Origin: Escherichia coli
GTDB lineage: Bacteria > Pseudomonadota > Gammaproteobacteria > Enterobacterales > Enterobacteriaceae
NCBI RefSeq assembly: GCF_016903815.1
Contig: NZ_CP069974.1
Length of the DNA stretch: 64,000 nucleotides
Reading direction: 5' to 3' (one strand)
How positions within the stretch are numbered: position 1 is the first letter of the stretch; each line of letters opens with the position of its first letter. Below the pieces are notes generated by a model that saw only the letters and a program-made list of their open reading frames with translations, made no database searches and was not told the origin of the DNA. The position numbers and the translations under genes were made by a program. Below, in pieces: positions 45,982 through 64,000 of this stretch.

Positions 45982-47050
<1,069 letters not shown>

Positions 47051-47102
47051 AGTTTTTTCAGGCATCGTGTGTAAGCAGAATATATAAGTGCTGTTCCCTG
47101 GT

Positions 47103-47160: not shown

Positions 47161-47510
47161 CTGTAAAAGGACAGACCACATCATGGTGCTGTGTTCATTA
47201 GGTTGTTCTGTCCATTGCTGACATAATCCGCTCCACTTCAACGTAACACCGCACGAAGATTTCTATTGTTCCTGAAGGCATATTCAAATCGTTTTCGTTA
47301 CCGCTTGCAGGCATCATGACAGAACACTACTTCCTATAAACGCTACACAGGCTCCTGAGATTAATAATGCGGATCTCTACGATAATGGGAGATTTTCCCG
47401 ACTGTTTCGTTCGCTTCTCAGTGGATAACAGCCAGCTTCTCTGTTTAACAGACAAAAACAGCATATCCACTCAGTTCCACATTTCCATATAAAGGCCAAG
47501 GCATTTATTC

Positions 47511-48317
47511 TCAGGATAATTGTTTCAGCATCGCAACCGCATCAGACTCCGGCATCGCAAACTGCACCCGGTGCCGGGCAGCCACATCCAGCGCAAAAAC
47601 CTTCGTGTAGACTTCCGTTGAACTGATGGACTTATGTCCCATCAGGCTTTGCAGAACTTTCAGCGGTATACCGGCATACAGCATGTGCATCGCATAGGAA
47701 TGGCGGAACGTATGTGGTGTGACCGGAACAGAGAACGTCACACCGTCAGCAGCAGCGGCGGCAACCGCCTCCCCAATCCAGGTCCTGACCGTTCTGTCCG
47801 TCACTTCCCAGATCCGCGCTTTCTCTGTCCTTCCTGTGCGACGGTTACGCCGCTCCATGGGTATTTTCAGTGTTGCCACCATCGTCTGCAGCTGGCTGAC
47901 GTACCAGGAGTCAGAGAGCGGAACCAGCCGGTGAGTCTGCTGACCGGCGGGCATTCTCCCCGCCGTCCTGGCAGCTTTTTCGGTCCGTTGTTTCAGGGTC
48001 GCAAGCTGCACAAACGGATACGGAGGCGCAAGCGAAAAATCCCCCCGCGTCAGCGCCAGTGCTTCATTAATGCGTGCTCCGGTGTTCCACAGTGTGGCCA
48101 GCAGCATCTTGCGGTGCAGATCCGGGACGTAATGGAGCAGGGCACTCACTTCCGGAGCCAGCAGATATTTTGGCAGTTCATCATGGACCATCGACATCTG
48201 GCGAAGTGCCAGAGCTGCCGGATAATCAATGGCAACAGGCAGCGATGCAGGCTGCCCGGCAGAATACACTGCCGGTACCATGACTGCAGACTGGCTGTGT
48301 ATAACGGAGCCTGACAT
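47511..48317 (-). CDS. resD: ResD tyrosine site-specific recombinase (F D protein)
   Basis: 268 aa with the C-terminal catalytic region ...HTFRHSYAMHMLYAGIPLKVLQSLMGHKSISSTEVYTKV. Confidence 0.9.
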   Translation of the reverse strand: MSGSVIHSQSAVMVPAVYSAGQPASLPVAIDYPAALALRQMSMVHDELPKYLLAPEVSALLHYVPDLHRKMLLATLWNTGARINEALALTRGDFSLAPPYPFVQLATLKQRTEKAARTAGRMPAGQQTHRLVPLSDSWYVSQLQTMVATLKIPMERRNRRTGRTEKARIWEVTDRTVRTWIGEAVAAAAADGVTFSVPVTPHTFRHSYAMHMLYAGIPLKVLQSLMGHKSISSTEVYTKVFALDVAARHRVQFAMPESDAVAMLKQLS

Positions 48318-48843
<526 letters not shown>

Positions 48844-49234
48844 AGCACACCTCTTTTTGACATACTTCGGGTATACATATCAGTATATATTCTTATGCCG
48901 CAAAAATCAGCGCGCAAATACGCATACTGCTATCTGGCTTTTAGTAAGCCTTATGTATTTTACCTTTCGTTATGTTAACCAATAAAAATTAAAATCTGAC
49001 TTATAAAAACAAAGCGTAATTACCGCATTCCCGTTTCGTATGGATCCGACTTTATTTGAATAAACGACTTTCCGGAAGTGTACAACGCTGAGAAAATCAT
49101 CATATCGCTGTTTTCCGCCCCTGCACGGCGCATCACAGGTCAGGGAAATAACACAACATATAGTGTCATCAGCAGCTGAATCCGGCACCACATGTTGTGC
49201 TTACAGGAAGTGGCGTTGTGTGGGGGGGAGAGGA

Positions 49235-49281
49235 AGATCCGTAACTGCCGGAAACCGGATCTCAGAAGAGAAAAAGAAGAG
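49235..49281 (+). repeat. hairpin-plus-polypurine junction repeat, copy 1
   Basis: AGATCCG-N14-CGGATCT (49235-49262), then the purine run AGAAGAGAAAAAGAAGAG (49264-49281). Another purine run (GGGGGGGAGAGGAAG) lies just upstream. Confidence 0.7.
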
Positions 49282-49476
49282 TTGTTGCAAGATAAGCACA
49301 AAAAATGGTGGTTTGTTGAGATATGGTAATTATTGCTCAGTGGGCAAAATTCAGAACAGAGTTAGCCTGAAATTGCAAAAAACAGGCCAGAAAAACTTTT
49401 TTCAGCTCATTTTCATCAACCGGCCTTAAAGGCTGCTTCGGATTTCCTAAATACAGTTTTACATAAGGAACATCGT

Positions 49477-49674
49477 ATGACTGTATTTCTCATGGCCGTT
49501 TTCTATGGCCTCTTAAAAACTGGCTCTCTCATTGCCCTACTTGTTGATGCCTATAAAGGCTGGACCTTGTTCTGGAAGAACTATGATCGACTCCCCCATA
49601 TCTACCGTTCGCAATGGCGATATCAGCGACGCTTCATTCTCAAAAGAATCTGGAAACGCATCAGAACCGGCTAA
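49477..49674 (+). CDS. possible small membrane protein (65 aa)
   Basis: RBS-like AAGGAA 7 nt before the ATG. One hydrophobic helix MTVFLMAVFYGLLKTGSLIALLV, then a W/R/K-rich tail. Convergent with the HTH gene, overlapping it by 4 nt. Confidence 0.35.
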   Translation: MTVFLMAVFYGLLKTGSLIALLVDAYKGWTLFWKNYDRLPHIYRSQWRYQRRFILKRIWKRIRTG

Positions 49675-49955
49675 GCCGGTTCTTCCAGCAGCATCCCCAA
49701 CCCGGCCAGCCAGCACAGACAGCACCAGGTGGTGAACACCATTCTGGTCTCGCCGGATTTCCACTTACGGATGGTGCGCTCGTCCACATCTAGCCGGTTG
49801 GCCAGCTGGATATCTGTGAGCGGGATCAGCGCCCGGACCACGCTGACTTCACTGGCTGAAGGTGCCATCCAGCTCTCGCCCGAGCACAGTGTTTCAGGGT
49901 TAAATTTCTCTAGTTCTATCAGCCCCTGAACCTGACGGGCATTTTCTGCCTTCAT
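49671..49955 (-). CDS. XRE/HigA-like helix-turn-helix protein (94 aa)
   Basis: ...SASEVSVVRALIPLTDIQLANRLDVDERTIRKWKSGETRMVFTTW..LAGL fits the antitoxin/regulator HTH pattern. It lies 20 nt after the DUF3800 gene. Confidence 0.6.
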   Translation of the reverse strand: MKAENARQVQGLIELEKFNPETLCSGESWMAPSASEVSVVRALIPLTDIQLANRLDVDERTIRKWKSGETRMVFTTWCCLCWLAGLGMLLEEPA

Positions 49956-49974
49956 ATGCGGTTAACCTTTCTGA

Positions 49975-51108
49975 TCAGGATTGCGACACACTTTGTACAC
50001 GATGGGCAAGACGGCGCGTTTCTTCCACGGCCCTGAGTTCATTTGCTTTTTCTATCATTTCTGCGGTTGGTTCAGAAAGTTTTTCAAAAAACTCCTTAAA
50101 CCTCTTTGCAACTGACTGCAGAGAAACACTGTCAGTTCTCGCTGTTTTAAGATTGGTGTAGACGAGGCGGGAAAGGGGTTTGGTCAGTTCCTTCCGTTCC
50201 ATGTATCGTTTGAAGATCCAGAGATAAATATCAACCAGTTCCAGCCCGGCACTCATCGTTCCCGACTGGAAGACAAGCGGTTTTGCTGGCATGTTCTTCA
50301 TATCCATGACAGGCAAACCCGGCCCCAGTGCCCACGGCTGTTCGCGGATCTGGTAGTAAAACTCGTTCAACTCCCGCTGGGTGGTGTTGAACTGTGACTG
50401 CTGGTCAACAATGATATCTGCTTTCCGGTTCGGTGCCCCCAGACGAGAGCAGATCCCGTGCAAAACGGACTGAAAACCAATCATATTGGGCATGATCTGC
50501 AACTTTTCCTTATTGGTTTTGCAGTTGTACCCCAGCTCATCAAAGTTGACCATCGCCCAAGATAGGGCATCGGTAATGAGTTCAACTGAACGGGCATCAC
50601 CCAGAGAGTGAACGCGCTGAAGCAGCACTCCACAAACCTCACTGAATAATGAGCAAGAACGTTCATCATGAGCCTCAAGACGGGCACGCCACGCTTTTTC
50701 AGCCAGCTCATCATCAAACAGATTAGACAGATTCAGCAGCAGGGGATAGCGCAGAGGGGTCCAGTAGGCACTCCAGGGCACAACCGGATTCAGTCCCTGA
50801 TCAAACACCTGGTCGAAGAACGAAATAATGGCGTGATCGCGCTTAACCACCTGCCAGATATCAAACCGTATCCGGTGATTTTTCTGCAGGACCAGCAGCG
50901 TATCCACAACTTCTGAAAGGCGGTGCACGCCCAGTTCCGCAGCGTGCAGGCGCTCCACGCCCAGAGTTTTGCGTAATGCGGCAAGATCCGCTTCAGCAAC
51001 CTTATCTAGGTCAGCCTCTGAGGACAGTACTCCGTAGGAGAGGATTGGCTGGGTTTTGTCAAAAAGGTTTCGGCCAGTCTGGCCTGTTTCATCCACATAA
51101 AAGTGCAT
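49975..51108 (-). CDS. DUF3800-like protein (377 aa)
   Basis: The N-terminus MHFYVDETGQTG matches the [FY]xDE[ST]G signature recalled for DUF3800. The rest is not recognised. Confidence 0.55.
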   Translation of the reverse strand: MHFYVDETGQTGRNLFDKTQPILSYGVLSSEADLDKVAEADLAALRKTLGVERLHAAELGVHRLSEVVDTLLVLQKNHRIRFDIWQVVKRDHAIISFFDQVFDQGLNPVVPWSAYWTPLRYPLLLNLSNLFDDELAEKAWRARLEAHDERSCSLFSEVCGVLLQRVHSLGDARSVELITDALSWAMVNFDELGYNCKTNKEKLQIMPNMIGFQSVLHGICSRLGAPNRKADIIVDQQSQFNTTQRELNEFYYQIREQPWALGPGLPVMDMKNMPAKPLVFQSGTMSAGLELVDIYLWIFKRYMERKELTKPLSRLVYTNLKTARTDSVSLQSVAKRFKEFFEKLSEPTAEMIEKANELRAVEETRRLAHRVQSVSQS

Positions 51109-51190
51109 TCAGATATCCTTTTCAAGGCAGGAGGAAAAGAAACGGCATAATTCAAATCAATGTAAAACCTTCCTGTTGCCGGCTGCAAGT

Positions 51191-51236
51191 GATCCTCTTA
51201 AATGAGTTTTCGGATCTAAGGAAGAGAGAAGAGGGA
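51191..51236 (+). repeat. hairpin-plus-polypurine junction repeat, copy 2
   Basis: GATCC-N16-GGATC (51191-51216), then AAGGAAGAGAGAAGAGGGA (51218-51236). The next approx. 40 nt resemble those after copy 1 (TTRTTGYA.GA...GCACAAAAA). Confidence 0.7.
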
Positions 51237-51370
51237 TTATTGTATGAATGGCACAAAAAGCGACGGATTGTTGCGGTGAATAGATTATTGCTTAGGAAGC
51301 AAAATTTATAGTAATTGATAACTCTAATGCAATTAAACAGCGACCCCATCAGGGGTCACCGTAATTTTGA

Positions 51371-54300
51371 TCAGCGATGTTCAAACCGCGCCACTGGAGT
51401 ATCAGTGATTTCCATCTCTATTTCCCAGAGCGTTTTCATCACACCTTCAAGTGGATCGTCGCTGCTGCGGTAGAAGGTATTGAAAAGGGTTCCATCCGGA
51501 TACCTGAACAGCCTGAGTTCACCAAAGGATTCAGCACTGACCATAAGCGAAAACTCCTGTTCGGAATTGAGGACAAGGTAAATAAGACAGTTATTGATCC
51601 TGAAGGGCAGAGAGCGGCTACCCCTGGCCGATACATCAACATGTATGCTAAACGCGTCATGCCTTTCCGGCTGATAGACCAGTTCCCTCAGTTCCTCGCT
51701 GAAGCGGGAACCATAGATCACCAGAATGTAGTTATTCTGATCAGCGGACCGTTGCGCGACTTCCATTAACAGCGTTTCGAGGTTATTGACCTCAATCGTT
51801 AATTTAGCCTGTGACTGCCACAGTACATAATGCAGTCTGCGGAGAATATTTCTGTTCACTTCTGATACCGAAGGGAAATCTCCGTAGTCAGTCTGATTAA
51901 GCTCTCTGGCAACATACTCTTTGGAAACACCAACAGGAATATATATCGCCAGCCAGTTGCGATCACATTCTGAATTTTGAGTAAACGTGAAGTATTTAAG
52001 CAGAACATCTTCAGACAATGCCCCAGGAAGTTCATTTGTAAGACGAGCATCAGTGTTTCTCAGTCGAGCCTGGTCTACTTCAGCAGCAACGATATCTGCC
52101 GTTTTACTACGACTGAATACATCTATGTATTTATCCAGAACATCATTAAAGAACACCACATTCGTTGCATAATCCGCTTCTGAAATGATATAACCTTCAT
52201 AGGGAACTGAAGGGTCTCGTTTCAGTCGTTTAAGAATAGAAATTATTCTGTCTTTACTGGAATAGGAAAACACCCCTCCAGCCAGGGCTTCATTAACACG
52301 CTGTGTAACCTGCTCCGCAGGCCTTGCGAGCTTTATAGCCAGCAAGGCAAACGCCCCGTAGAGACTCCCTAAATCTTCATATTCCCCTGTATACATACGC
52401 CCGGGAATGTAAGGCCTTTCATTATATGAGTTCATAACCTCAATGGTTTCTGATAACCCGCTGTACCAGCTTGTATTCGTATGCAGATTGCAGTGCTCAA
52501 TTCTCAGTATCATGTCAATGATATCGACAGAACGTCTGAATGCAGGCGTCAGCGTGTCATGTGTATCTCTATCTTCATATAATTCAGACATAATGAGATG
52601 ATTCACAAGATCGGCTAAGTCTATATTTTTTTGCGATTCAAAATGAGCAATAAGATACCCTGCCATTAACAACCGCAAATCGGATAAGGCATTTGCAAAC
52701 ATAATGGACAAAGCGGCATCTTTTTTATACTTGCTGCCCCTGAGTAACATATTCCACTGCGGTTCTGTCTCCTTCAGGGACAGATAATCCGGAGTCAGGA
52801 AGAAACTGTGCCAGCGGTACTCTTCCTCCCAGTAACGTGTAAACCGGCTCTGATTAAACCAGAGGCAGAGAACGTCGTGAGCATATCGCACGGAAGAGGC
52901 ATTATCGGCAACCACTGACGGAATAAGAAGCCTGGCGGTATTATGCAGATGATACATCAGGCGGCCAGTAGAATCTTCACTCCCGGGTTTGCCAGTGATC
53001 GTGGTCATACTCCAGCCTTCCCACAGTCCGATATACCCGCGGATAAGGGCCTGGTGAGTCAGCTCCTGGCTGGCCGAGAGGGGGCCCCCCAGTCCCGCTT
53101 TCCACTCGTTTAACACATGCCACACCCTGAAAAGCGAGAGTAAAAACTGTCTGAAATCGGTAAAACACGTGCTCTGTGTTTTTCTGTACACACGCAATGG
53201 AATGAGCATCGATTCACGGAAATATTCGCCTGAATATTCCGTTGATTTTACGGATTCACGAAAAAACTTTCTCAATTCATAATGGAATGAATCGCTGAAA
53301 GTATGGCTAAAACCTGATTCTTTTACTTCATCCAGATAATTTTTATCGACCTCGTAATTGTAACTTCTTTTGATAGAGGTATAGGTATCTGTTAATCGTT
53401 CAATCCCTGTTCTGAAGACGCTAATATTTTTATCGTTAAGCGCATCGTAAGCCTCACCAAAGAAATCAAAAGTAATATCATCCAGATCCCTTTTGTTCTC
53501 AGGGCGCCCTGTTACAATACAACGACGCAATAACCACCGCCACAATCCTGAAACAGGCTTGACATTTCTCGATGACAATAAAGTCAGTTCACCAGAACGA
53601 ACACCAAAGGAGGGCAGAATGATAATTTCCGCATCCTGCCCATCTACCGCCTCTAGCCTTCTCAGTAGGAATAAAAAAGGCCTTATATAAATATCAGTAA
53701 CAACATCACCTTTACTGATATTAGATTTAACATGAAGCATATCGTCTTTCTCAGAAATTGAGTAAGGCAGTATTTTAATATTACCGAGGTAATTTTGACC
53801 TACATGACCCCCCGGGTAACGCAGCCACGCCTGAATATATGCTTTTTGAATGTAGTCATCCACTATCTGAGATAAAAAAAACTTATTCATTAGTCGATCG
53901 CGTTTGCTCTCATCCAGGACATTCAGACTGGAGACGAAGAACCAGATAGACAGAATAATATTGAAAAGCATCCACACAAAAGCTGTTACGGCAAAAGAAG
54001 TATTAAGATATCCGTCACCTATAGATAACGTCATACCGCCCAGCACGACAAATGCAGCCAGTGAAAGACCACTCAGGCCCGCAAACATATATCCGGAATG
54101 AAGTTGATACGCGGACTGAATATGGATCCTTGCTGATTTCTTTTGAAATAAAACACTTATAAGCCCCACAACCAGCGGAAATACAATACCGATTATAGTC
54201 AACTGGCTACCCAGTAAATTAGACATCCAATCTGAAAGCTTGGTAATGCCCTTAAAATGCTGCACAGCGAAAGGTAGCAATACAGGGCGAAAATATTCGA

Positions 54301-54490
54301 CCACGCCAACAGCCCCGAAGGCTGCGGACCATAGAACCAGCATAGCCCGGACGTAATGGGTGGAGCAGGAAACAAGTATTCTCTCCACCGGGTTCCAGCG
54401 AAGTTTTTTGTAATCCCGGTTCGACTTCAGGCTCCGTCGGAGTTCAGCTCTCACCTGCCATGAGACACTTTTCAGAAGTTTTCCAAACAT
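51371..54490 (-). CDS. large membrane-anchored protein of unknown function (1039 aa)
   Basis: About five hydrophobic helices in the first approx. 190 residues, followed by an approx. 850-aa soluble region with no motif I recognise. AT-rich codon usage. Hairpin GTGACCCCTGATGGGGTCGC follows the stop. Confidence 0.7.
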   Translation of the reverse strand: MFGKLLKSVSWQVRAELRRSLKSNRDYKKLRWNPVERILVSCSTHYVRAMLVLWSAAFGAVGVVEYFRPVLLPFAVQHFKGITKLSDWMSNLLGSQLTIIGIVFPLVVGLISVLFQKKSARIHIQSAYQLHSGYMFAGLSGLSLAAFVVLGGMTLSIGDGYLNTSFAVTAFVWMLFNIILSIWFFVSSLNVLDESKRDRLMNKFFLSQIVDDYIQKAYIQAWLRYPGGHVGQNYLGNIKILPYSISEKDDMLHVKSNISKGDVVTDIYIRPFLFLLRRLEAVDGQDAEIIILPSFGVRSGELTLLSSRNVKPVSGLWRWLLRRCIVTGRPENKRDLDDITFDFFGEAYDALNDKNISVFRTGIERLTDTYTSIKRSYNYEVDKNYLDEVKESGFSHTFSDSFHYELRKFFRESVKSTEYSGEYFRESMLIPLRVYRKTQSTCFTDFRQFLLSLFRVWHVLNEWKAGLGGPLSASQELTHQALIRGYIGLWEGWSMTTITGKPGSEDSTGRLMYHLHNTARLLIPSVVADNASSVRYAHDVLCLWFNQSRFTRYWEEEYRWHSFFLTPDYLSLKETEPQWNMLLRGSKYKKDAALSIMFANALSDLRLLMAGYLIAHFESQKNIDLADLVNHLIMSELYEDRDTHDTLTPAFRRSVDIIDMILRIEHCNLHTNTSWYSGLSETIEVMNSYNERPYIPGRMYTGEYEDLGSLYGAFALLAIKLARPAEQVTQRVNEALAGGVFSYSSKDRIISILKRLKRDPSVPYEGYIISEADYATNVVFFNDVLDKYIDVFSRSKTADIVAAEVDQARLRNTDARLTNELPGALSEDVLLKYFTFTQNSECDRNWLAIYIPVGVSKEYVARELNQTDYGDFPSVSEVNRNILRRLHYVLWQSQAKLTIEVNNLETLLMEVAQRSADQNNYILVIYGSRFSEELRELVYQPERHDAFSIHVDVSARGSRSLPFRINNCLIYLVLNSEQEFSLMVSAESFGELRLFRYPDGTLFNTFYRSSDDPLEGVMKTLWEIEMEITDTPVARFEHR

Positions 54491-54600
54491 AGATATCCTG
54501 CGTATTACATAAGAAATTTTATGAATAATAAGCGGTAGGAACCTTTTTTTCTCTGGAAAATGTCACCCGATACCCTTCATACAGGCTTTGTCATCCTAAA

Positions 54601-54652
54601 ATCCGGTTTAACCTTTTTTCGGATCTCCGATAAAAAAGAAAGAAATAGAGAT
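54601..54652 (+). repeat. hairpin-plus-polypurine junction repeat, copy 3
   Basis: ATCCG-N14-CGGAT (54601-54624) overlaps the palindrome TTTTTTCGGATCTCCGATAAAAAA, then the A/G-rich run AAAAAGAAAGAAATAGAG. Confidence 0.6.
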
Positions 54653-54796
54653 ATGCATAAACATATGCCTGGCATCTACATATGCTACCGCTATACATAT
54701 GCCACACATCTGCCTATACTAAACATATGCACACACCCGGTGCTTTGAATATTCCGGATATGTTTCACATATCCATATGCTCGGGAGAGAAAGAAC

Positions 54797-55027
54797 ATGA
54801 GAACCGTATCGATATTTAAAAATGGCAACAACCGCGCCATCCGTCTGCCTCGTGATCTGGATTTTGAGGGGGTGAGCGAGCTCGAGATCGTCCGGGAAGG
54901 GGACAGCATCATCCTGCGCCCCGTCCGGCCAACCTGGGGATCATTCCTAGAGTACGAAAAAGCCGATCCAGATTTTATGGCGGAGCGCGAGGATGTTGTC
55001 AGCGACGAAGGGCGATTTAACCTGTGA
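54797..55027 (+). CDS. vapB: VapB/VagC antitoxin (AbrB/SpoVT fold)
   Basis: 76 aa MRTVSIFKNGNNRAIRLPRDLDFEGVSELEIVREGDSIILRPV.... Confidence 0.9.
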   Translation: MRTVSIFKNGNNRAIRLPRDLDFEGVSELEIVREGDSIILRPVRPTWGSFLEYEKADPDFMAEREDVVSDEGRFNL

Positions 55028-55440
55028 ACAAGACTTATATGCTTGATACCTGTATCTGCTCGTTCATCATGCGTGAACAGCCAGAAGCCGTCCTGAAGCG
55101 TCTGGAGCAGGCGGTGCTACGCGGCCACCGTATAGTGGTCTCGGCCATCACCTACTCTGAAATGCGCTTCGGGGCTACCGGCCCAAAGGCCTCACCACGT
55201 CACGTCCAACTGGTCGATGAATTCTGCGCCCGCCTCGATGCCATCCTGCCCTGGGATCGCGCCGCAGTAGACGCCACCACGAAGATTAAAGTGGCACTGC
55301 GGCTGGCCGGGACGCCGATCGGCCCGAACGACACGGCGATTGCCGGGCACGCCATCGCCGCCGGGGCGATACTGGTAACGAATAATACAAGAGAATTTGA
55401 GCGAGTGCCTGACCTGGTGCTGGAAGACTGGGTGAAGTAA
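55024..55440 (+). CDS. vapC: VapC/VagD PIN-domain toxin
   Basis: 138 aa (GTG start overlapping the vapB stop) ...YMLDTCICSFIMRE...TNNTREFERVPDL with PIN acidic residues. Confidence 0.9.
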   Translation: MNKTYMLDTCICSFIMREQPEAVLKRLEQAVLRGHRIVVSAITYSEMRFGATGPKASPRHVQLVDEFCARLDAILPWDRAAVDATTKIKVALRLAGTPIGPNDTAIAGHAIAAGAILVTNNTREFERVPDLVLEDWVK

Positions 55441-55477
55441 GACACTCTTTTCAAAGTCAGGAGATAAGGGCACCAAG

Positions 55478-55502
55478 AAACAGCCCGTATACGGGCTGTT
55501 TT
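55478..55502. terminator. bidirectional intrinsic terminator
   Basis: AAACAGCCCGTATACGGGCTGTTTT lies between the convergent vapC and the ATPase gene. Confidence 0.8.
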
Positions 55503-55601
55503 AACAGATATCTACAGTAAGCGGTCCTAAACTGTAGGGTATCTTCGAAGATCAGACTATCAGGGAGCTAAAGCCTATCTTCCGGCGGCAAAAACAGTGG
55601 C

Positions 55602-57740
55602 TCAAGCGATACGGGCAACCGAGCTCTGGTTTGCTGCCGGTGGCAGGGCGATGAGCTTGTCACATTCCATAATCACGTACTCCGGGATGAGATCGAATCT
55701 GGACGGATCTAGTTGACAGATGAACTCATTTTCAATGTGGTACGTTTCGTTAACGAATTTTCGTATTACCGGATGGTCCTGATCCAGTTCCAGTAAACGG
55801 AATACCTGCAGTTTTTCATAGCCGTTACGACAGCGACGGTACAGGTTTTTTATTTCATCTGGGCTGCTGACGAGAGCCTGAAGTCGCGGGTAATCAAAAC
55901 TGTCCACATACTCCCGGATATCCCGCAAGGCCTGCTGAATTTTCTCAGGAGCCATTTTGGGATAGCCCGAGCCCGCAGCGGCAGGCTCGCGATAATCCAG
56001 CGGGGCGACGCGTCGATGGAATAGATTGGATAGAAGCTGATAAGCATCACCACGTTCGTCAACGATTTCAAAGTAGCGACGAAGATAGATGAGCTTAATG
56101 ATCTCCTCACAGTCTGCTGACGCGGTGATGGATTTGCAGATCTGCATGAATGTCATGATATCGCCGTCGTTAACAGGTAATTCTTCTATGACTCCAGCAG
56201 ACAGGCGCAGGCAGGAGGCGGTCACCTGATTACTGAACAACCTTCTGACTGACTTCAGCGTGTCAATCACAGGCTCCACGTCATGCGTCAGCATAAGTAC
56301 AGTCCGGTTCTTCAGGCATTCACCACTTGCACGTCTGAACAGCATTTCAAGAATGGCAAACTTCTTGTTTTTATCAAAAGAAGATATGGGATCATCAAGG
56401 ATAATCAGTCCCGGGTTTTTTGACAGGCATTCATACATGAATAACACAATCGCAAAGGCGTTCCGTTCTCCATAGCTGAGATGCTGGCTACCGCCGCTGA
56501 CGTACCCGTCAAAATCTATGTGTCGTAGCCTGAGTTTTCTCTGCTCTCCCTCGCCGGCTATATCCACCCTGTATTTATAGCCTGCATAAGTGAGGAAATT
56601 ATTGATGTTTGTTTTGTGCTGTGCGATCAGCCGGATCATGCTGTCCCGGTGCCGGTTAATTTTTCCCTGCAGCGGTCCGGCAAGGTTTATCAGGTCCATA
56701 AGGGCCGCGTTCAGTCTGTCGGTGATCCCCTGCATGAGTTCGGATTGCAGATCAGGGAAGAACTGCAGGTCAATCAACCTGGCAGTGAGCACCTCCCGAA
56801 CGTTCTGCTGTTCCTGCAGGCTGAAAACATTCAGGCCTCTCAGCGCAGTGAGTTTCTCTGTCAGCGTATCGGTCTGGCGTTTCAACGCCACTAGGTACTC
56901 GATATGTTCGGCTTCCGGACCGTTCTGAAGCATAGTAATGGCCAGAAGGCGTTCTCTGGCGCTCTCCGTCAGGTAATTACCGAGGTTTTCCACCAGTCTG
57001 ATGATAGCGGTCAGGTTTTTAATGGTGGATTTATCGTATTCCTCTCTGACTTGGCGAATTTGTGCTTCCTTTCCCGTGATATCACCGGTACAGAACGGAC
57101 AGCAGCCATCCGAAAGGGGCGAAAACTCGAGTCCCTTTGTCTGCCAGTCAATCCATTCCACGCGGCGTTCACTGCGGATGTAGGGTTGATAGTTCTCAAG
57201 ACCAGCCGGAATGTGGTGTATTTTATTTCCGCCTGACAGACCTCTCATGCCGGTTGAAGAACGTGAAATCCCGGAACTGGTTGATTTGAAAGCATTACTG
57301 AGTTCCTGTAGATGGTCTATCAGAGAGTTCAGCTCAGTGTGATCCGTGAAAACAGCCCGGATCTTTTGCGTCATTTCTTCTATTTCACGCTCTCTTTCCG
57401 CATGGGCTTGATTGCGGATAAGAATATTAAAGCTGTCACTGATGAGCTCGTCCGGTTGGAACGTAAACTGACTGACGTACTCCTCGTTGAAGCACATCAC
57501 GTCCCCAATCCCGTCAGCACCGATGACAATGGGCCCGGTGCTATCGGGGTTTTCTCCGCGCAGCCGGAAGGGCATCAGTGCCTGTAGTCCCTGAATGTCG
57601 TCCCGCGCCGCACAGCTTATGGCCCGTGACAGCGTACTTTTTCCAGTACCATTTGGCGCAAACTTAATGTTCAGTTTATCGGCAGTGAGGGTGATATGTG
57701 CTCGTACGATGTTATTGCAGTGGCGTATTTCAATGTCCAT
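55602..57740 (-). CDS. AAA_13/RloC-like ABC-type ATPase with coiled-coil zinc hook (712 aa)
   Basis: Walker A APNGTGKST, signature LSYGERNA, Walker B LIILDDP and H-loop LTHD are split by a long helical insert containing CCPFC. The approx. 170-aa C-terminal domain is of unknown function. Confidence 0.7.
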   Translation of the reverse strand: MDIEIRHCNNIVRAHITLTADKLNIKFAPNGTGKSTLSRAISCAARDDIQGLQALMPFRLRGENPDSTGPIVIGADGIGDVMCFNEEYVSQFTFQPDELISDSFNILIRNQAHAEREREIEEMTQKIRAVFTDHTELNSLIDHLQELSNAFKSTSSGISRSSTGMRGLSGGNKIHHIPAGLENYQPYIRSERRVEWIDWQTKGLEFSPLSDGCCPFCTGDITGKEAQIRQVREEYDKSTIKNLTAIIRLVENLGNYLTESARERLLAITMLQNGPEAEHIEYLVALKRQTDTLTEKLTALRGLNVFSLQEQQNVREVLTARLIDLQFFPDLQSELMQGITDRLNAALMDLINLAGPLQGKINRHRDSMIRLIAQHKTNINNFLTYAGYKYRVDIAGEGEQRKLRLRHIDFDGYVSGGSQHLSYGERNAFAIVLFMYECLSKNPGLIILDDPISSFDKNKKFAILEMLFRRASGECLKNRTVLMLTHDVEPVIDTLKSVRRLFSNQVTASCLRLSAGVIEELPVNDGDIMTFMQICKSITASADCEEIIKLIYLRRYFEIVDERGDAYQLLSNLFHRRVAPLDYREPAAAGSGYPKMAPEKIQQALRDIREYVDSFDYPRLQALVSSPDEIKNLYRRCRNGYEKLQVFRLLELDQDHPVIRKFVNETYHIENEFICQLDPSRFDLIPEYVIMECDKLIALPPAANQSSVARIA

Positions 57741-57888
57741 TTATCTGTCCTTTGCCAGTTATTCCGGGGGGATTCATATCCTGCCGCAAAATGTGCCCGC
57801 ATGCTGTGATGCAGATACATAATACATTTCGTTTATACCATTGCTTACACCTCTCCGAGATGTTCATATCAGAAACAAAGATTAGGTC

Positions 57889-57934
57889 GATCCGACTTTT
57901 ACTTTTTTCGGATCTCTGGAGAGGGGAAGAAGGA
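57889..57934 (+). repeat. hairpin-plus-polypurine junction repeat, copy 4
   Basis: GATCCGA-N12-TCGGATC (57889-57914), then GGAGAGGGGAAGAAGGA (57918-57934). Confidence 0.7.
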
Positions 57935-58204
57935 TTTGTGCTGATGATGCAATACTAATGATATATTTTGAACTTAATTGCATTATTGCTTATCTGGCAT
58001 TAATAACTGAAATACTTTGCATAATTATCAATGAAAGAACGAGGCTCATATTTCCCATGTAAATTATATGCCCTTGCAGAGAGCGAGACGGTAGTGAACT
58101 TGCGGCACTAATAATAAACTGTACCGACTCTTCCCGGGCACTGGAATGTTCAGATGTACGACAGAGCCCCGCGCCTTTTGCAATAAATAATTAAAGGACT
58201 GAAC

Positions 58205-59200
58205 ATGGCGACCACAGTAATAGCTGCCTTTAACGAATTTATGAAAGATACCGTGAATCTCAAAAAGGCAGATACCGATGACGCGCGTGCAAGTCGCGAC
58301 TGGCTTATCGGTAAGATGAATGATTTTGAGAAGGACGATAAATTTCCGGTGAGTTTTCCAGCGATCCATATTGCCTTTGGCTCCTTTGCCAGAAGAACCA
58401 AAATCCGTCCGCTTGATGATATCGATCTGATGTTTGGCTTAACCGGGCAAGGTGCCACCTATACCATCCTGAGTGACCGGATAACTGTAACCTCCTCCGG
58501 AGAGGGGTCACGTCTGCACAGTTACCGCCATTCCGGAGCTGACACCGTCTGCTCCGTCAGAATTCTGAATGCCTTTAAAAACCGCCTGCAGGACATTGCC
58601 CAGTACGCCCAGGCTGATATCAGGCGTAACCAGGAAGCTGTCACGCTGAAACTGGTCAGCAAGGACTGGAATTTTGACATCGTCCCCTGCTTTATTACCA
58701 GCGAAGATGCCTTTGGACGGACTTACTACCTGATCCCCGATGGCAACGGCCACTGGAAGTTTACCGACCCCCGTAAAGACAGGGACAGAGTCACTACTAT
58801 CAATGTGCAGAATAACGGCAATGTGCTCAATGTCATCAGAGCAGTCAAATACTGGCAGCGGCGACCGACGATGCCATCCATGAGTTCCTACCTGCTGGAA
58901 ACGCTGATTCTGGACTATTACGCTGGCAGGACATCCTGCTCATCGTTTGTTGACATGGAGCTGGAAGCGCTTTTCCGCCACCTTGGTCAATCCGTGCGGT
59001 ACTCTGTCAACGATCCCAAAGGCATACAGGGTGATATCAACTCACTTTCAGCCGAGGCACGTAAGGCGATATCGGACAGATGTTATCTCGATGCGCAAAA
59101 GGTATCGGAGGCGAGATGGTTTGAAAATAATAAAGAGTATGAAAAATCCATCAATAAATGGCGCGATGTGTTCGGGCCATTCTTTCCTGTTTACGGGTGA
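58205..59200 (+). CDS. SMODS/CD-NTase-like nucleotidyltransferase (CBASS cyclase)
   Basis: 331 aa with the pol-beta NTase signature FGSFARRTKIRPLDDIDLMF and third carboxylate NFDIVPCF. Confidence 0.75.
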   Translation: MATTVIAAFNEFMKDTVNLKKADTDDARASRDWLIGKMNDFEKDDKFPVSFPAIHIAFGSFARRTKIRPLDDIDLMFGLTGQGATYTILSDRITVTSSGEGSRLHSYRHSGADTVCSVRILNAFKNRLQDIAQYAQADIRRNQEAVTLKLVSKDWNFDIVPCFITSEDAFGRTYYLIPDGNGHWKFTDPRKDRDRVTTINVQNNGNVLNVIRAVKYWQRRPTMPSMSSYLLETLILDYYAGRTSCSSFVDMELEALFRHLGQSVRYSVNDPKGIQGDINSLSAEARKAISDRCYLDAQKVSEARWFENNKEYEKSINKWRDVFGPFFPVYG

Positions 59201-59203
59201 ATC

Positions 59204-60136
59204 ATGAATGCCATTTACACAAACCAGTCGACCAGAGAAAACATGGATTTACTGTATGCGCAGGCCCGTGTCTACGACAGGGTAAAAAACTGGAACAGAC
59301 TGAATTTTCTCTTCAGCATCATCGTACCGCTCCTGCTTTCTTTCGTTACCGTATACAACCGGAGCCGGGAATTTGTCGATTCAGAGTTGTTGTCTTCGCT
59401 GTTGGGGTTATATGGACTCCTGGTGCTTACCTTTAACATTGTTATCAGTGGACACATCTCGGCTCTGCGCAGGAAGGCAGCCTCAATCCAGGAAATGTAC
59501 GACTGCCGGGTACTTGGCATCCGGCGTAATGAACTGAAGGTGGAGGAGATCCCACGGGATGACATCATCCGGGAAGCTGCATATTTTAGAGACAGCCCGG
59601 AAAAAGCACGAAAGCGATTTGGCGAAGAGGGGTGGTACGTCAGTAAGGTGTATGACGCGCCGCAGGCCGTAATGGCGCTCCTTTGCCACGGAAAAAATCT
59701 CGGCTGGGACAAATCGCTCAGGGAGGTTCTGCACGTATTTTATCTTTCCGCTTTTATTGTCTCGCCTGTCGCGATGCTTGTTTACGGCATCGTCATGAAA
59801 TCCGGGCTGAATGAGATCCTCTTCTATGTGGTGTTCACACTGCCGGTCATCCGCTATTTCTTGCTTCAGTTTCTGGATAATCGCAGCAGTATGAAAAGAA
59901 GCGAGAAGCTGAAAAAGTACGTTGAGAAGGAATTATCCGGCATAAGGGTGTCCGGAAGGGCAGAAGAAGAGCAACTGGCTTATACGCTCCGGAATATCCA
60001 AGATGAGATGTTTACCTACCGGGCCTCATGTCCGCCCGTACCCAACGGTATTCAGCTGATAATGAAGCCCAAAAATGAACGAATTTATGTTGATTACTTT
60101 GAAACAAATCTGAAGGAGCTGCACCTTCAGAAGTAA
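59204..60136 (+). CDS. four-TM effector (S-4TM-like) of the CBASS operon
   Basis: 310 aa starting 4 nt after the cyclase stop. Two pairs of hydrophobic helices (about 33-51 and 62-85; 185-208 and 214-233) are separated by a soluble segment. Confidence 0.65.
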   Translation: MNAIYTNQSTRENMDLLYAQARVYDRVKNWNRLNFLFSIIVPLLLSFVTVYNRSREFVDSELLSSLLGLYGLLVLTFNIVISGHISALRRKAASIQEMYDCRVLGIRRNELKVEEIPRDDIIREAAYFRDSPEKARKRFGEEGWYVSKVYDAPQAVMALLCHGKNLGWDKSLREVLHVFYLSAFIVSPVAMLVYGIVMKSGLNEILFYVVFTLPVIRYFLLQFLDNRSSMKRSEKLKKYVEKELSGIRVSGRAEEEQLAYTLRNIQDEMFTYRASCPPVPNGIQLIMKPKNERIYVDYFETNLKELHLQK

Positions 60137-60272
60137 TCCCTCCTTAGCTCCGGTGTAGGATTTACGTATGCCGGAGCACATCCGATAAACAATTCTTGGT
60201 TGCCTGAGTGTCAGCGTAAACCCATAGTCACCTTCGCCTCAGACGGTTAGTAACACAGGTAATGACTCCAAC

Positions 60273-60776
60273 TTACTGATAGTGTTTTATGTTCAGATAA
60301 TGCCCGATGACTTTGTCATGCAGCTCCACCGATTTTGAGAACGACAGCGACTTCCGTCCCAGCCGTGCCAGGTGCTGCCTCAGATTCAGGTTATGCCGCT
60401 CAATTCGCTGAGTGTAACGCTTGCTGATTACGTGCAGCTTTCCTTTCAGGCGGGATTCATACAGCGGCCAGCCATCCGTCATCCATATCACCACGTCAAA
60501 GGGTGACAGCAGGCTCATAAGACGCCCCAGCGTCGCCATAGTGCGTTCACCGAATACGTGCGCAACAACCGTCTTCCGGAGCCTGTCATACGCGTAAAAC
60601 AGCCAGCGCTGGCGCGATTTAGCCCCGACGTATCCCCACTGTTCGTCCATTTCCGCGCAGACGATGACGTCACTGCCCGGCTGTATGCGCGAGGTTACCG
60701 ACTGCAGCCTGAGTTTTTTAAGTGACGTAAAATCGTGTTGAGGCCAACGCCCATAATGCGGGCTGTTGCCCGGCAT
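60273..60776 (-). CDS. insB: IS1 InsB
   Basis: 167 aa ...[58 protein letters not shown].... Confidence 0.92.
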
Positions 60777-60970
60777 CCAACGCCATTCATGGCCATATCA
60801 ATGATTTTCTGGTGCGTACCGGGTTGAGAAGCGGTGTAAGTGAACTGCAGTTGCCATGTTTTACGGCAGTGAGAGCAGAGATAGCGCTGATGTCCGGCAG
60901 TGCTTTTGCCGTTACGCACCACCCCGTCAGTAGCTGAACAGGAGGGACAGCTGATAGAAACAGAAGCCAC
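60695..60970 (-). CDS. insA: IS1 InsA
   Basis: 91 aa [88 protein letters not shown]. Confidence 0.92.
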
Positions 60971-61183
60971 AGGAGCACCTCAAAAACACCATCATACACT
61001 AAATCAGTAAGTTGGCAGCATCACCGGCATTCAAAATCATTATGGCCGCGATCTATTTCTGGCTGTTCTCTATCACTTTTGGCGGCATCGTCGCTCATGG
61101 GTAAGGGGAGTATATTAGCCATTTGGAACCCCACGGTCTCTTGCGGGTTTAATTAAGAACCCGCAAGAAAAACACGAATTGGG

Positions 61184-64000
61184 CTATATTTTTCCGCCTA
61201 CGCCTTTAAACTTCTCAATAAACGAGACGATTTTCTGGAAAACTGCCTGTTTTTTCGTTTTATATTGCGGGTTTAACGGACTAAGTTTTGGTAATGTCTC
61301 GTTTAATTCTGTGCCATTTTCGGTGGCGTATTCGCGTTTTAAAGACGTGCGAATATAGCGTTTCGCCGCCTCTTCATTGAGATTTTCTTCTTTAATCAAC
61401 GCTTCTGCTTCACGTAGCTGTTCGTGTTGAGCAAAGGTAAAGAACGCGTCAATGATGCTGGCTTTGTCTGGTAAATCATCCAGGTTCGTTTGCTGAATAA
61501 AATCGACCACCAGGCCCTCTTTCGCCCGGTTCCCCAGGCTTGAACGAATTAAGCGTTTGACCTCTTCGATCATTTCGCCCTTGCCTTTATTTTGTCTGTT
61601 ATGTTCGAAAATCAGTCCAAGGATATAATCCAGGTTTATTTCCTGAGACTTCAGCAAATCGACCTCAAAAACCACGTCATCCCAGTCAGTGGTTGATTTC
61701 TCTTTTTTCTCAGCTTCTTTCTCACGGCGCTGCCAGTCGCGAATATCGTTATAGGCAGAACGATAATCCTGAATCTTGCGATCAGCAGGGAGACGAATTG
61801 TTTGCAATTCAGCGAGCTTTTCATCATCCACATAATGTTCTGCTTTGAATTTTTCTACTGCAACAGGATCGCTAAGATCGATTTGTTGCAGGGCTTTCAG
61901 CGTGGCAAATTCATCATAGTTTTGCAGGATGTTCTCGGTACGCAGGTATTCACCAAACAGTTTTACGAAGTCTTTCTTCTCTTTTTCACTTTCAATACTG
62001 GCAGGGTCAGGGAACCGTTGTTCCAGTTCTGCAACTACTGCCATAAAGCCGCGCTTAGCTTCACCAGTAGCAGCATCAGTAAAGCCTTCCATATACTCTG
62101 CATAACTCTTTTCTAACACTACATTTTTGGTGTTTTTGTCACCAAACAGCGTTATGGCATCAATAGTTGAGCGTTCCAGATCCCGGAAAGTGACGATATT
62201 ACCGAAGGTTTTAGTGGCGTCATAAATGCGGTTGGTGCGGGAAAATGCCTGCATCAGGCCGTGAAAACGTAAGTTTTTATCGACGAATAGCGTGTTCAAT
62301 GTTGGAGCATCGAAGCCGGTTAAGAACATCCCCACGACAATTAGCAGATCGATATCCTGATTTTTAACCCGCTGGGCTAAATCACGATAGTAGTTCTGAA
62401 AACCGTTACTGTCGGTGCTAAAGTTAGTTTTAAAATGGCTGTTATATTCACGAATTGCAGCGTCCAGAAACTCTTTAGCACTGCTGTCCATTGCGCTGGT
62501 ATCAAAAGTTTCATCGGAAATCTCACCAATGGCATTTTGTTCTTCATTGGCGGCAAAGGAGAAGATTGTCGCAATACGCAGCGGTTTATAGGTAGCCGAT
62601 TTATTAGCGGCTTCTTCTTGTAACCGTTTAAACGTCGCATAATAGGCTTTCGCGGCATCCACGCTGCTCACTGCCAACATAGCATTAAAACCTTTTGAGC
62701 CAGGGAAGGTACGGTGAGTTTTCTGGCGGAAATTATTCAGAATATATTGCGTAATTTCCTGTATACGCATGGGATGAAGAAACGCCTGCTGATTTTCAGC
62801 CGCACTCAGTTTTTTCTCGTCGGTTTCTGTCTCTAAAGACTTAAACTGTGGCCGCACATCGTTGTAGTCCACCTTGAATTTAAGCACTTTTTCATCTCGA
62901 ATCGCATCGGTAATAACATATGAATGCAATTCACGACCAAATACGCTGGCGGTTGTTTCTGAGCCTAAGGCGTTTTCCGGGAAAATAGGGGTACCGGTAA
63001 AACCAAACTGATAATAGCGTTTGAATTTCTTCTTCAGGTTTTTCTGTGCTTCTCCAAACTGGCTGCGGTGGCATTCATCAAATATAAACACCACTTGCTG
63101 ATTGTATACAGGCAGGTCGCTTTCTGCTTTCATCAGGTTATTGAGTTTCTGAATAGTGGTGACGATAATTTTGTTATCATCCTTATCCAGATTTCGTTTA
63201 AGACCTGCGGTATTTTCCGATCCATTGACACTGTCTGGCGAAAAACGCTGATATTCCTTCATGGTCTGGTAATCGAGGTCTTTCCTGTCGACCACAAAGA
63301 AGACTTTATCAATAAAGTCCAGTTCTGTTGCCAGACGCGCGGCTTTAAAGCTGGTCAGGGTTTTACCAGAACCGGTAGTGTGCCAGATAAAGCCACCACT
63401 TTCGGGGGTAGACCAGTTTTTCGCTTTATAGGAGCTGTTGATTTTCCATAAGATACGCTCAGTGGCGGCAATCTGGTACGGTCGCATCACCAGTAGCGTC
63501 TGGCTACTGTCAAAAACGCTGTAGTTCACCAGAACATTCAGCAGAGTATGTTTCTGGAAAAAGGTAGCGGTAAAGTCTTTGAGGTCTTTAATCAGCGTGT
63601 TGTCTGATTTTGCCCAATTCATGGTGAAGTCAAAACTGTTTTTATCGCGCTTTGTCGTGTTGGCAAAATAATGGGTATCGGTGCCGTTAGAAATGACAAA
63701 CAGTTGCAGATACTTAAACAGGGAATTTTCGCTGTTAAAACTCTCTTTACTGTAACGATGTATCTGGTTGAAAGCCTCACGAATCGCCACCCCGCGTTTT
63801 TTTAGTTCGATTTGCACCAGCGGTAAACCATTAACCAGGATCGTGACGTCATAACGGTTAGCATGAGAACCCGTCTGTTCAAACTGCTGGATAATCTGCA
63901 CCTTATTGCGCATGAGATTCTTTTTATCTATCAAATAGATGTTCTCAAGACGCTCGTCATCAAAAATAAAGTCGCAAATATAGTCGATATGGATTTTACG
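61184..64000 (-). CDS. hsdR: type I restriction enzyme R subunit (type IC, EcoR124I-like), 5' end outside the window
   Basis: The reading frame is open to the window edge (…[34 protein letters not shown]…). Helicase motifs HTTGSGKT and [10 protein letters not shown]. Hairpin TCTTGCGGGTT-N-AACCCGCAAGA follows the stop. Confidence 0.9.

Follow-up and report, generated by a model that had tools for sequence, protein, structure and literature searches.

F-like, IncI1, and IncR plasmids share the rfsF/ResD system, in which ResD is a multimer-resolution tyrosine recombinase. According to the paper on pEC958 (PMC4398462), RepFIA starts at nt 45,922, and its "two rfsF sites" come first, before oriV-1, ccdAB, and resD. 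The rfsF site has been proposed as the point at which "Delta" and "Col" sets of genes in IncI1 plasmids, including pifA and ibfA, are swapped, and foreign DNA enters IncR and IncFII plasmids beside vagCD at rfsF (PMC8004404, PMC9412624). A recombinase gene beside an array of cassettes is also the layout of integrons and of the pdif (XerC/D) modules of Acinetobacter, where a short, imperfect inverted-repeat site in one orientation bounds each cassette, cassettes occur singly or reordered on other replicons, and hybrid sites mark excision. Plasmid defense islands as a kind are likewise known. Here, we analyzed positions 48,900 to 64,000 of a 64,000-nucleotide stretch of Escherichia coli DNA (contig NZ_CP069974.1; the whole stretch is referred to as the window), in which an earlier note had seen a defense island that made a defense role more likely for its unknown genes as well. 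The region is probably an accessory arm of RepFIA that is built as an array of exchangeable phage-defense and addiction cassettes, with a short repeated element, here named J, at the cassette boundaries.

The features of the region are collected in Table 1. The array starts 0.9 kb from resD with J1, which is followed by a 65-aa ORF (open reading frame), a 94-aa ORF resembling helix–turn–helix (HTH) proteins, and a DUF3800 gene. J4 is followed by a gene for a 1039-aa membrane protein, J3 by vapBC and an ATPase of the PDC-S06 family, and J2 by a type I cyclic-oligonucleotide-based antiphage signaling system (CBASS), after which the insertion sequence (IS) IS1 leads into an EcoR124-type restriction–modification (R-M) system. 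The identities of these genes, the four repeats, the breakpoints in the spacer of the repeat, one hybrid site, and the variable contents of the slots can be read directly from the DNA.

Table 1. Features of the array and of the adjoining backbone, with positions in the window
Feature	Position	Strand	Basis
resD, small tyrosine recombinase, 268 aa	47511..48317	-	Pfam Phage_integrase 6.8e-18
ccdB	48318-48623	-	Pfam CcdB 2.4e-32
ccdA	48625-48843	-	Pfam CcdA 1.2e-26
Non-coding backbone	48844..49222	.	By position, oriV-1 region of RepFIA
J1	49223..49289	+	14-nt loop; profile R1 E 8.8e-13; left boundary of array
65-aa ORF, one N-terminal hydrophobic helix, Lys/Arg-rich tail	49477..49674	+	Hydropathy
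94-aa protein, weak HTH_3/Cro-like signal, C-terminal hydrophobic helix	49671..49955	-	PHROG 8351 3.8e-13 (unknown function)
DUF3800 protein, 377 aa, predicted RNase H-like enzyme	49975..51108	-	Pfam PF12686 4e-6
J4	51181..51244	+	R1 E 2.6e-10
1039-aa membrane protein, candidate defense gene	51371..54490	-	AF2 model, hydropathy, family contexts
Predicted C-terminal HK97-fold (major capsid protein/encapsulin-like) domain, residues 760-1039	51374..52213	-	
J3	54590..54653	+	R1 E 4e-12
vapB	54797-55027	+	Pfam MazE_antitoxin 3.2e-9; NCBIfam VapB 1.6e-27
vapC	55024-55440	+	Pfam PIN 2.8e-15
712-aa ABC-type ATPase	55602..57740	-	Pfam AAA_13 8.7e-18; PADLOC PDC-S06
J2	57880..57943	+	R1 E 1.2e-12
CD-NTase (SMODS cyclase)	58205-59200	+	Pfam SMODS 1e-13; PADLOC Cyclase 4.3e-152, full length
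S-4TM effector	59204-60136	+	Pfam S_4TM 7.3e-47; PADLOC 4TM effector 1.1e-165
IS1, 768 bp	60258..61025	-	InsA, DDE_Tnp_IS1 domains; inverted repeat at 61003-61025
hsdR, EcoR124-family (type IC) R-M; 5' end beyond window	61184..64000	-	Pfam EcoR124_C 7.7e-72

The J element is approximately 65 bp long and consists of AGATCCG, a T-rich spacer of 14 to 17 nt, (TTTT)CGGATCTC, and some 20 purine-rich bases. Its 7-bp inverted arms, AGATCCG and CGGATCT, each contain one GATC (J1, 49235-49262; J4, ~51193-51218; J3, ~54600-54627; J2, ~57888-57916). The GATC (Dam) sites of the two arms are about two helical turns apart, which might bear on binding that depends on methylation, or on timing once conjugation has brought the DNA in. 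A hairpin formed by the element is not a terminator, as neither strand has a T-run after the stem.

A 71-position profile, R1, was built from 13 copies. It matched the 64-kb window exactly four times, always on the + strand and with E ≤ 2.6e-10. Since these four sites were part of the training set, the evidential weight lies with the sites outside it, which comprise a second site in plasmid F (~41.1 kb, E 8e-8), sites upstream of both vapBC copies of pU302L, and sites that flank homologues of the 1039-aa protein (27–45% identity) on three further plasmids (E 1e-10 to 4e-3). Each of these three plasmids (L048–L050) encodes a ResD-like integrase of 261 to 268 aa within 4 kb, and one of the three carries a RES/Xre pair as its next cassette. 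Seven other plasmids have two or three J sites each, and scanning ~150 kb of conjugative-element, chromosomal, and prophage loci with R1 gave none. The full profile is needed for such searches; the 12-mer core alone gave 6 matches, versus 5.8 expected, at two mismatches, which is not significant. Within an array, the J copies have one orientation relative to the recombinase gene.

The boundaries of homology between plasmids coincide with J. Homology to other plasmids stops at J1, the backbone up to ~49279 being 98.2% identical to pU302L and pMTY2809, and sub-blocks of the array end in other plasmids at window positions 49256-49262, 51207, 54578-54608, and 57889-57899. Pairwise blastn matched pMRY15-131_1 to window 54597-57898, and the vapBC–ATPase block starts at 54597-54608; breakpoints at 57898/57899 occur in pMTY2809, pMRY15-131_1, pJJ1887-5, and a K. 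quasipneumoniae plasmid. The breakpoint lies inside the 14- to 17-nt spacer in six or more independent comparisons. In AP026480, window 47001-49279 is joined straight to 57899-64000, and the intervening 8.6 kb are missing (pairwise blastn). Its junction is a hybrid, to which J1 contributes the left arm and the start of the loop, and J2 the end of the loop and the right arm. This is the exact product expected of recombination within the spacer.

The units between the J elements also occur on their own. The vapBC–ATPase unit was found without the rest of the island in three plasmid records (99.8% identity; rows H62–H64) and as one block with the CBASS in a Salmonella plasmid (H60), whereas the CBASS occurs by itself in a K. 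quasipneumoniae plasmid (H71). Likewise, the 1039-aa gene stands alone in an Enterobacter cloacae plasmid (90.5% identity, match beginning at window 51207; H66), as does the unit of 65-aa ORF, HTH-like ORF, and DUF3800 gene elsewhere (97% identity; H72 and H73). The earlier note had joined the transmembrane (TM) protein, DUF3800, and HTH genes into a single cluster, and this grouping has to be given up. None of 26 loci with homologues of the 1039-aa gene has a DUF3800 or HTH neighbor, the 1039-aa gene is present in 0/8 DUF3800 loci, and each unit is found alone on plasmids; the TM protein and the DUF3800/HTH pair are thus two independent cassettes and not one operon.

What fills the slot between the DUF3800 gene and vapBC differs from plasmid to plasmid. 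In pU302L, it holds a 257-aa protein with a HEPN protein of the pEK499_p136 family (L038, 7357-8643), in pJJ1887-5 a PHP and an ABC ATPase gene, and in a Klebsiella plasmid it is empty. Downstream of vapBC, pU302L has a 1264-aa YobI-type NTPase (9596-13390) and a second vapBC, and in pMRY15-131_1, pifC–pifA and a TIR-type gene lie beside vapBC and the ATPase. AAA_15/21 and PHP–ABC ATPases occupy equivalent slots of pJJ1887-5 (L040) at 8621-11112 and 14922-17543. Judged from their sequences, these alternative contents (HEPN, YobI NTPase, PHP–ABC ATPase, RES–Xre, and PifA) belong to conflict-system families, and the slots of pU302L and pJJ1887-5 offer a ready list of further candidate cassettes.

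Comparison with plasmid F suggests what J might be. In F, the copy of J occupies nt 45,922-45,950, where rfsF is placed, and is 162 bp upstream of pifC; from this position and the sequence pattern we infer that J is rfsF or an rfsF-like element. Location and the adjacent resD gene agree with the rfsF/ResD system of F-like, IncI1, and IncR plasmids; the difference is that here four sites (on other plasmids, two or three) stand in tandem, and a defense or toxin–antitoxin (TA) cassette is delimited by each. Such tandem rfsF-type elements delimiting cassettes appear to be undescribed in the searchable literature. The pif region of F has the same position relative to ccdAB, oriV-1, and resD, and it too is bracketed by J; it differs in carrying PifA as cargo in one cassette, where the present array has CBASS, PDC-S06 ATPase, DUF3800, and the 1039-aa protein in tandem. 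In F (L047, NC_002483), the two J elements, at 3066-3126 and 7896-7962, have the same orientation, and the genes between them (3217-7761) are pifC, pifA (a KAP NTPase), a gene for a 299-aa TIR protein of the CAP12/Pycsar-effector type (3.7e-37), and a 96-aa ORF. It thus appears that the classical pif region is a single J-system cassette and that a second, unstudied defense-type gene lies in it.

The predicted role of ResD, by its sequence and place, is to mediate excision and insertion of the cassettes. It would cut them out and insert them at J, much as happens at the attC sites of integrons or in pdif modules, and the outcome would be a swappable set of defense genes beside the plasmid's multimer-resolution site. 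The likeness has its limits, in that J is unrelated in sequence to attC or dif, the putative enzyme is a multimer-resolution recombinase, the J cassettes have their own promoters and either orientation, and recombination is here read from sequence patterns.

The cassette behind J4 encodes the 1039-aa membrane protein, which is a candidate new defense protein by its sequence and contexts. Four hydrophobic (TM) helices within residues 46 to 190 are followed by a beta domain (235–335), an all-alpha solenoid of ~425 residues (336–760), and an alpha/beta C terminus (761–1039). AlphaFold2 run with the family alignment gave a confident model (pLDDT 86.4, pTM 0.71), and the C-terminal domain is predicted to match the HK97 fold of solved capsid proteins and encapsulins. 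Searches of Pfam, NCBIfam, PADLOC, and PHROGs with the protein gave no match, and Pfam searches with 47 family members returned nothing significant, the best match being SU10_MCP at E 0.16 in two members. Compared with HK97-fold proteins that are not part of virions, such as encapsulins and Ccm, by which the satellite SaPIbov5 redirects capsids, the predicted HK97-fold domain differs in lacking detectable sequence similarity (Pfam, 47 members) and in being fused to a four-TM anchor and the alpha solenoid. The gene also has no neighboring head-assembly genes, and tblastn with the protein found no match in 50,697 phage genomes. A membrane protein with a predicted capsid fold appears to be undescribed in the searchable literature.

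A HMMER search with a 47-sequence profile put the family at 778 representatives at 50% clustering, nearly all of 1030 to 1150 residues, and members were found on 421 of 72,556 plasmids. The TM region, with the invariant residues Q96, P105, G109, Q116, W173, and N177, is the conserved part (41% identity to distant members, with 41 of 160 columns at least 90% conserved), whereas the HK97-like and beta domains retain 15% identity to distant members. A distal domain that evolves fast next to a TM module that is conserved is the usual pattern of an effector joined to a sensor. In 5 of 23 loci (L019, L021, L033, L036, and L037; ~10001-13200), the homologue is split into two ORFs, for example of 193 and 837 aa or 464 and 603 aa. 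Sequencing errors are possible in these cases; otherwise, the splits suggest frequent inactivation, as is often seen for costly defense genes.

The genomic contexts of the homologues point in the same direction. In Aliikangiella, Kangiella, and Psychromonas, they lie in type I R-M operons between hsdS and hsdR, abutting both on the same strand. PrrC occupies this slot in the prr locus, which is the basis of "guilt by embedding" (Payne et al. 2024); in contrast to PrrC and RloC, the 1039-aa protein has neither an ATPase nor a nuclease domain. Other homologues directly follow McrB–McrC in a Salmonella conjugative element, belong to a P4-like element (satellite) of Pantoea with an integrase and an AAA_15/21 ATPase alongside, lie near SIR2 and PIN genes in Vibrio, or adjoin pifA on a Pantoea plasmid. 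Many other neighbors in the 23 loci are unannotated, so the association with defense is suggestive rather than statistical. PADLOC applied to 122 neighbor ORFs gave family counts (PifA, retron RT, PDC-S11/S25, mad8, and DpdC), from which no enrichment statistic follows, and 3 of 10 large neighbors had a match. With matches this sparse, the evidence is modest outside the embedded, McrBC, and PifA cases.

The mechanism that we tentatively prefer for the 1039-aa protein, with rather low confidence, is that of an abortive-infection-type sensor–effector that reads phage head assembly. The protein would act as a single-gene system in which the conserved four-TM module is the effector and the capsid-fold tail engages phage head-assembly components or oligomerizes like a capsomer. 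As a capsomer mimic, the tail might co-assemble with, or be recognized by, the major capsid protein, scaffold, prohead protease, or portal, and contact with a head protein would lead to membrane damage or to poisoning of head assembly at the membrane. The protein might instead interfere directly with head assembly, provide a pore with a capsomer-like oligomerization scaffold, or have a role outside immunity.

The last of these is possible, though less likely than not. The protein might be a transporter or membrane scaffold, or a domesticated capsid remnant of a prophage, fused to a membrane anchor, with a part in the biology of plasmids or conjugative elements, for example, in surface or entry exclusion. 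Some homologues are indeed named MFS (major facilitator superfamily) or chromate transporters (P0006, P0077, P0093, and P0102), yet none of the 47 members has a transporter family at the Pfam level, and merely four TM helices bear a soluble part of ~840 aa. Confinement of the family to mobile elements (plasmids, conjugative elements, and islands) and the many neighbors that PADLOC leaves without a match would suit such a role; the abutment to hsdS and hsdR in three genera and the combination of a TM module that is conserved and a distal domain that changes fast argue against it. Taken jointly, the proposals that the 1039-aa protein founds a family of single-gene antiphage proteins with a capsomer-mimic domain and that the array is an integron-like ResD/rfsF platform form a speculative reading, to which we give rather little credence as a whole.

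In the CBASS cassette, the S-4TM gene starts 4 nt past the stop codon of the cyclase gene, in the same operon. By eye, and not by structural alignment, the cyclase translation has the GS...DID motif and a later D, and the nearest solved cyclases are of the CdnD type (8.6e-16). The flanks of the CBASS, which are the J2 intergenic region and IS1, hold no Cap2/Cap3 or HORMA/TRIP13 genes, and the absence of accessory genes makes this a type I CBASS. On infection, the cyclase would make a cyclic nucleotide and the 4TM effector would then damage the membrane, resulting in abortive infection. Drexlerviridae phages are restricted by CdnD–4TM operons of E. coli and escape through mutations in the prohead protease and the capsid (bioRxiv 10.1101/2023.05.21.541620). 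The operons of Richmond-Buccola et al. share with the present one the two-gene layout of cyclase and S-4TM and the lack of Cap2/Cap3 or HORMA genes; the likeness shown is at the level of architecture and CdnD type.

The vapB and vapC genes overlap by 4 bp, as in a type II TA layout, and VapC scores 122 bits against a cut-off of 140 bits for the tRNA(fMet)-specific VapC equivalog. The 712-aa ATPase next to them matches the PDC-S06 profile PDLC04889 over its full length (3e-286; residues 1-698 versus 1-688 of 693 in the profile) and belongs to a family of more than 3,600 clusters with ~55% identity across phyla. All motifs of an ABC (Rad50-like) ATPase are present (Walker A, signature, Walker B, and H-loop), and they are invariant in 34 homologues of 54 to 88% identity (G31–T36, L421-S-x-G-E425, D449–D450, and T485–H486), as is a CPxC in the insert (C214-P-x-C217). 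A CxxC zinc-hook motif in the coiled-coil insert is a feature of RloC. The C-terminal 220 residues are conserved (R554, R555, E558, H575, H668, and E670) and match no named family.

The earlier note had called this ATPase RloC-like. The description fits insofar as the protein shares with RloC the ABC ATPase core, the CxxC in the insert, and a separate C-terminal domain. Membership in the RloC/PrrC group is not justified by the profiles that were available, among which there was one for PrrC: the PADLOC PrrC profile is limited to the ATPase core (residues 421–473, E 3.3e-4), a sequence search of the PDB returned ABC-transporter cores only, and PADLOC files the protein, in contrast to PrrC and RloC, under the candidate system PDC-S06. 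The ATPase might be a guard in the style of PrrC/RloC, with the C-terminal domain as the toxic part. In Nitrosomonas (L043, 6001-9262), a PDC-S06 homologue overlaps a downstream 387-aa gene of unknown function, and one in Serratia (L041, 3440-8139) has a TIR_2 protein as its neighbor; it may thus be that the ATPase has a working partner in some lineages.

The DUF3800 match scores 28 bits against a gathering cut-off of 21. DUF3800 proteins are described in the literature as RNase H-like, act as effectors in type VII retrons, and are linked to Cas12a2 loci. Thirty homologues (50–95% identity) share ten invariant residues (D6, E7, D83, D91, H92, D103, D235, Q237, E290, and D293), of which D6–E7 form the N-terminal D-E motif of the domain. 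A C-terminal QxxD motif has also been described for DUF3800 (PMC7736814); the C-terminal acidic pair is here E290-x-x-D293 rather than QxxD, and D235-x-Q237 is invariant as well. By sequence, the invariant acidic residues fit the RNase H-like fold reported for the domain. Close relatives stand alone beside a prophage-end integrase in Proteus or by IS elements. A search of window 48000-64000 at E ≤ 10 with the Rfam motifs DUF3800-I to XI gave chance-level matches only, none near the gathering score.

The neighbors of the DUF3800 gene are, here and in Klebsiella, a weak-HTH protein of 94 to 97 aa and a TM/basic peptide of 65 to 68 aa, whereas in pU302L and pJJ1887-5, a 170-aa protein takes their place. 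The 94-aa ORF that had been annotated as an HTH gene exists, and its HTH signal is weak: a CII-like regulator at 0.003, Pfam HTH_3 at E 0.14, and the NCBIfam VC1465 family at 1.8e-4, the last below the cut-off. One annotator labels it "korC" (CP058799). The 65-aa ORF has no family match in Pfam, PADLOC, NCBIfam, or PHROG and is a hypothetical protein in RefSeq plasmids. The two ORFs converge, with a 4-bp overlap of their 3' ends, and a Klebsiella virulence plasmid has this pair too, with 68 and 97 aa, the latter labeled korC. The pair could be a small toxin with its regulator.

The right part of the region belongs to the R-M system, which would cut unmodified incoming DNA. HsdR comprises HSDR_N, ResIII/SWI2_SNF2, T1R_D3-like, and EcoR124_C domains (PADLOC REase_I E = 0) and has ~17 differences in 916 aligned residues from HsdR of EcoR124I (PDB 2w00, residues 123-1038), i.e., ~98% identity. 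In NZ_CP024863, which is 100% identical over 48900-64000, hsdS and hsdM follow past the window end. Between the cassette array and hsdR lies IS1, which connects the array to the gene's 3' end, and homology to pJJ1887-5 ends at 60250, at the IS1 end. The earlier note had placed the right edge of the island at IS1 and had seen no target duplication. The nine bases on either side, AGTAACACA and GGCATTCAA, differ, so there is indeed no 8- to 9-bp duplication; the element is an internal junction and not the edge, as hsdR and, in identical plasmids, hsdS, hsdM, and phd/doc follow.

Apart from the corrections given above, the inventory of the earlier note stands: ccdAB (just to the left of position 48,900), vapBC, DUF3800, the SMODS–4TM pair, and the EcoR124I-like hsdR are all present. 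PADLOC finds three units within 15 kb, namely, the type I CBASS, a type I restriction subunit, and PDC-S06. Comparison with related plasmids speaks against the previously unassigned genes being conserved backbone, since the slot between DUF3800 and vapBC varies or is empty, units occur alone, and non-plasmid homologues lie in R-M and McrBC contexts. The reading as a defense island is thus supported and held up in every test that was run, with function being predicted.

Several points weigh against an array of ResD-mobilized defense cassettes. The right-hand J site of the CBASS is missing in the window, where IS1 replaces what followed, and an R1 scan showed that hsdRSM and phd/doc are not bounded by J. 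PDC-S06 is a predicted, not a validated, defense system. The equation of J with rfsF is taken from position and not from a published rfsF sequence, and for a classical core site of a tyrosine recombinase, the 7-bp arms are short and the 14- to 17-nt spacer is long. Two further points concern the location of J, which could be a shared regulatory element with ordinary recombination, and the TA modules and R-M system, which can be explained by plasmid addiction alone.

The first of these leads to an explanation in which J is a shared operator or promoter-proximal element, such as a ResD-repressor site or a Dam/SeqA switch, and the boundaries arise through recombination at a short shared sequence. 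In most cassettes, J precedes the first + strand gene by 160 to 300 bp (pifC, vapB, the cyclase gene, the 65-aa ORF, and the 170-aa ORF). The GATC in each arm would suit such a switch, and the D protein of F (ResD) has been reported as both a resolvase and a transcriptional repressor. However, J4 and the copies in the Enterobacter plasmids L016 and L020 are found on the 3' side of the 1039-aa gene, with an orientation opposite to it, and are therefore not its promoter. The breakpoints within the spacer, the clean hybrid site, and the common orientation relative to the recombinase gene also argue against regulation, which we regard as an unlikely origin of the pattern.

In the second, the region would be an addiction or stability arm whose loss kills the cell, with phage defense being incidental. 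The region contains or is flanked by three type II TA pairs (ccdAB, vapBC, and phd/doc), and it adjoins replication, partition, and multimer-resolution genes. Transposon-directed insertion site sequencing (TraDIS) of the related plasmid pEC958 found ccdA protected from insertion, and vagCD is described as a stability locus (PMC4398462). The same work identified a hypothetical gene, EC958_A0140, as needed for stable maintenance of the ST131 plasmid and found it in 17 other plasmids, 16 of them IncF (PMC4398462). In our own reading, too, the vapBC genes and the flanking ccdAB and phd/doc, the latter beyond the window, would mainly stabilize the plasmid. Yet CBASS, type I R-M, PifA, HEPN, YobI, and ABC ATPase genes, all of defense or conflict families, fill the same slots in related plasmids, and on non-plasmid elements, members of the 1039-aa family are embedded in type I R-M operons or adjoin McrBC. 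Addiction and defense are not mutually exclusive; as the main account of the region, we consider addiction improbable. A chance pile-up of cargo by IS elements with no organizing principle is already disfavored and highly improbable, for although IS1 connects two unrelated segments without a target duplication and IS66, IS2, and IS26 insertions are found in variants of the region, there is only one IS within the 15 kb, and the four internal boundaries have J elements and no IS ends.

The region that contains the probable array is widespread. Megablast found positions 48900-64000 over the whole length and at 100% identity in at least 118 PLSDB plasmids, and with IS1 omitted from the query, 156 plasmid records cover at least 80% of the island. 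The hosts of the identical island are mostly E. coli from human blood, urine, sewage, and animals. The DNA is thus not new; it is already in databases, largely labeled as hypothetical. The host replicon is a multi-replicon IncF plasmid in which the island, as an accessory arm, lies between RepFIA and RepFIB, the order in NZ_CP024863 being sopAB, repE, resD, ccdB, ccdA, island, hsdR, hsdS, hsdM, phd/doc, and the RepFIB initiator gene. The resD product is annotated as site-specific integrase WP_000016982.1 in the identical plasmids and in plasmid F. The ccdAB pair is part of the RepFIA backbone, and the non-coding stretch to its right is also found between ccdA and pifC in F.

The region had also been described as lower in G+C than the F backbone. 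Its G+C content is 46.9%, compared with 52.4% in window 1-48899, and no other 15.1-kb window falls below 48.6%; the adjoining RepFIA/F backbone (sopAB/repE, 43-47 kb) has 44 to 48%. The low G+C content thus contrasts with the resistance and transfer regions and not with the adjacent F backbone. Within the island, it is uneven, with 57.6% in vapBC and 57.5% in the HTH ORF, compared with 44.3% in the 1039-aa gene and 43.1% in hsdR. The minimum of the window lies outside the island, at 12001-15000 (0.34–0.37 at 13-15 kb), and is below any part of it. Elsewhere in the window, three + strand ORFs of 555 aa each (17987-19654, 29772-31439, and 35443-37110) lie in a part of the plasmid to which the annotations of matching plasmids assign three copies of ltrA, a group II intron reverse transcriptase/maturase, and the AT skew is strongly positive across these stretches.

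If the J elements are ResD substrates, the multimer-resolution site would double as a capture platform, which would explain the shuffling of defense genes among F-like plasmids, and the J profile would provide a handle for harvesting further cassettes. The 1039-aa family offers an easily cloned candidate defense protein with a predicted viral capsid fold, a principle that we did not find described in the searchable literature. Multidrug resistance in clinical E. coli is carried mainly by IncF plasmids of this type. Should the cassettes function as predicted, such a plasmid would confer layered phage resistance together with antibiotic resistance, which bears on phage therapy.

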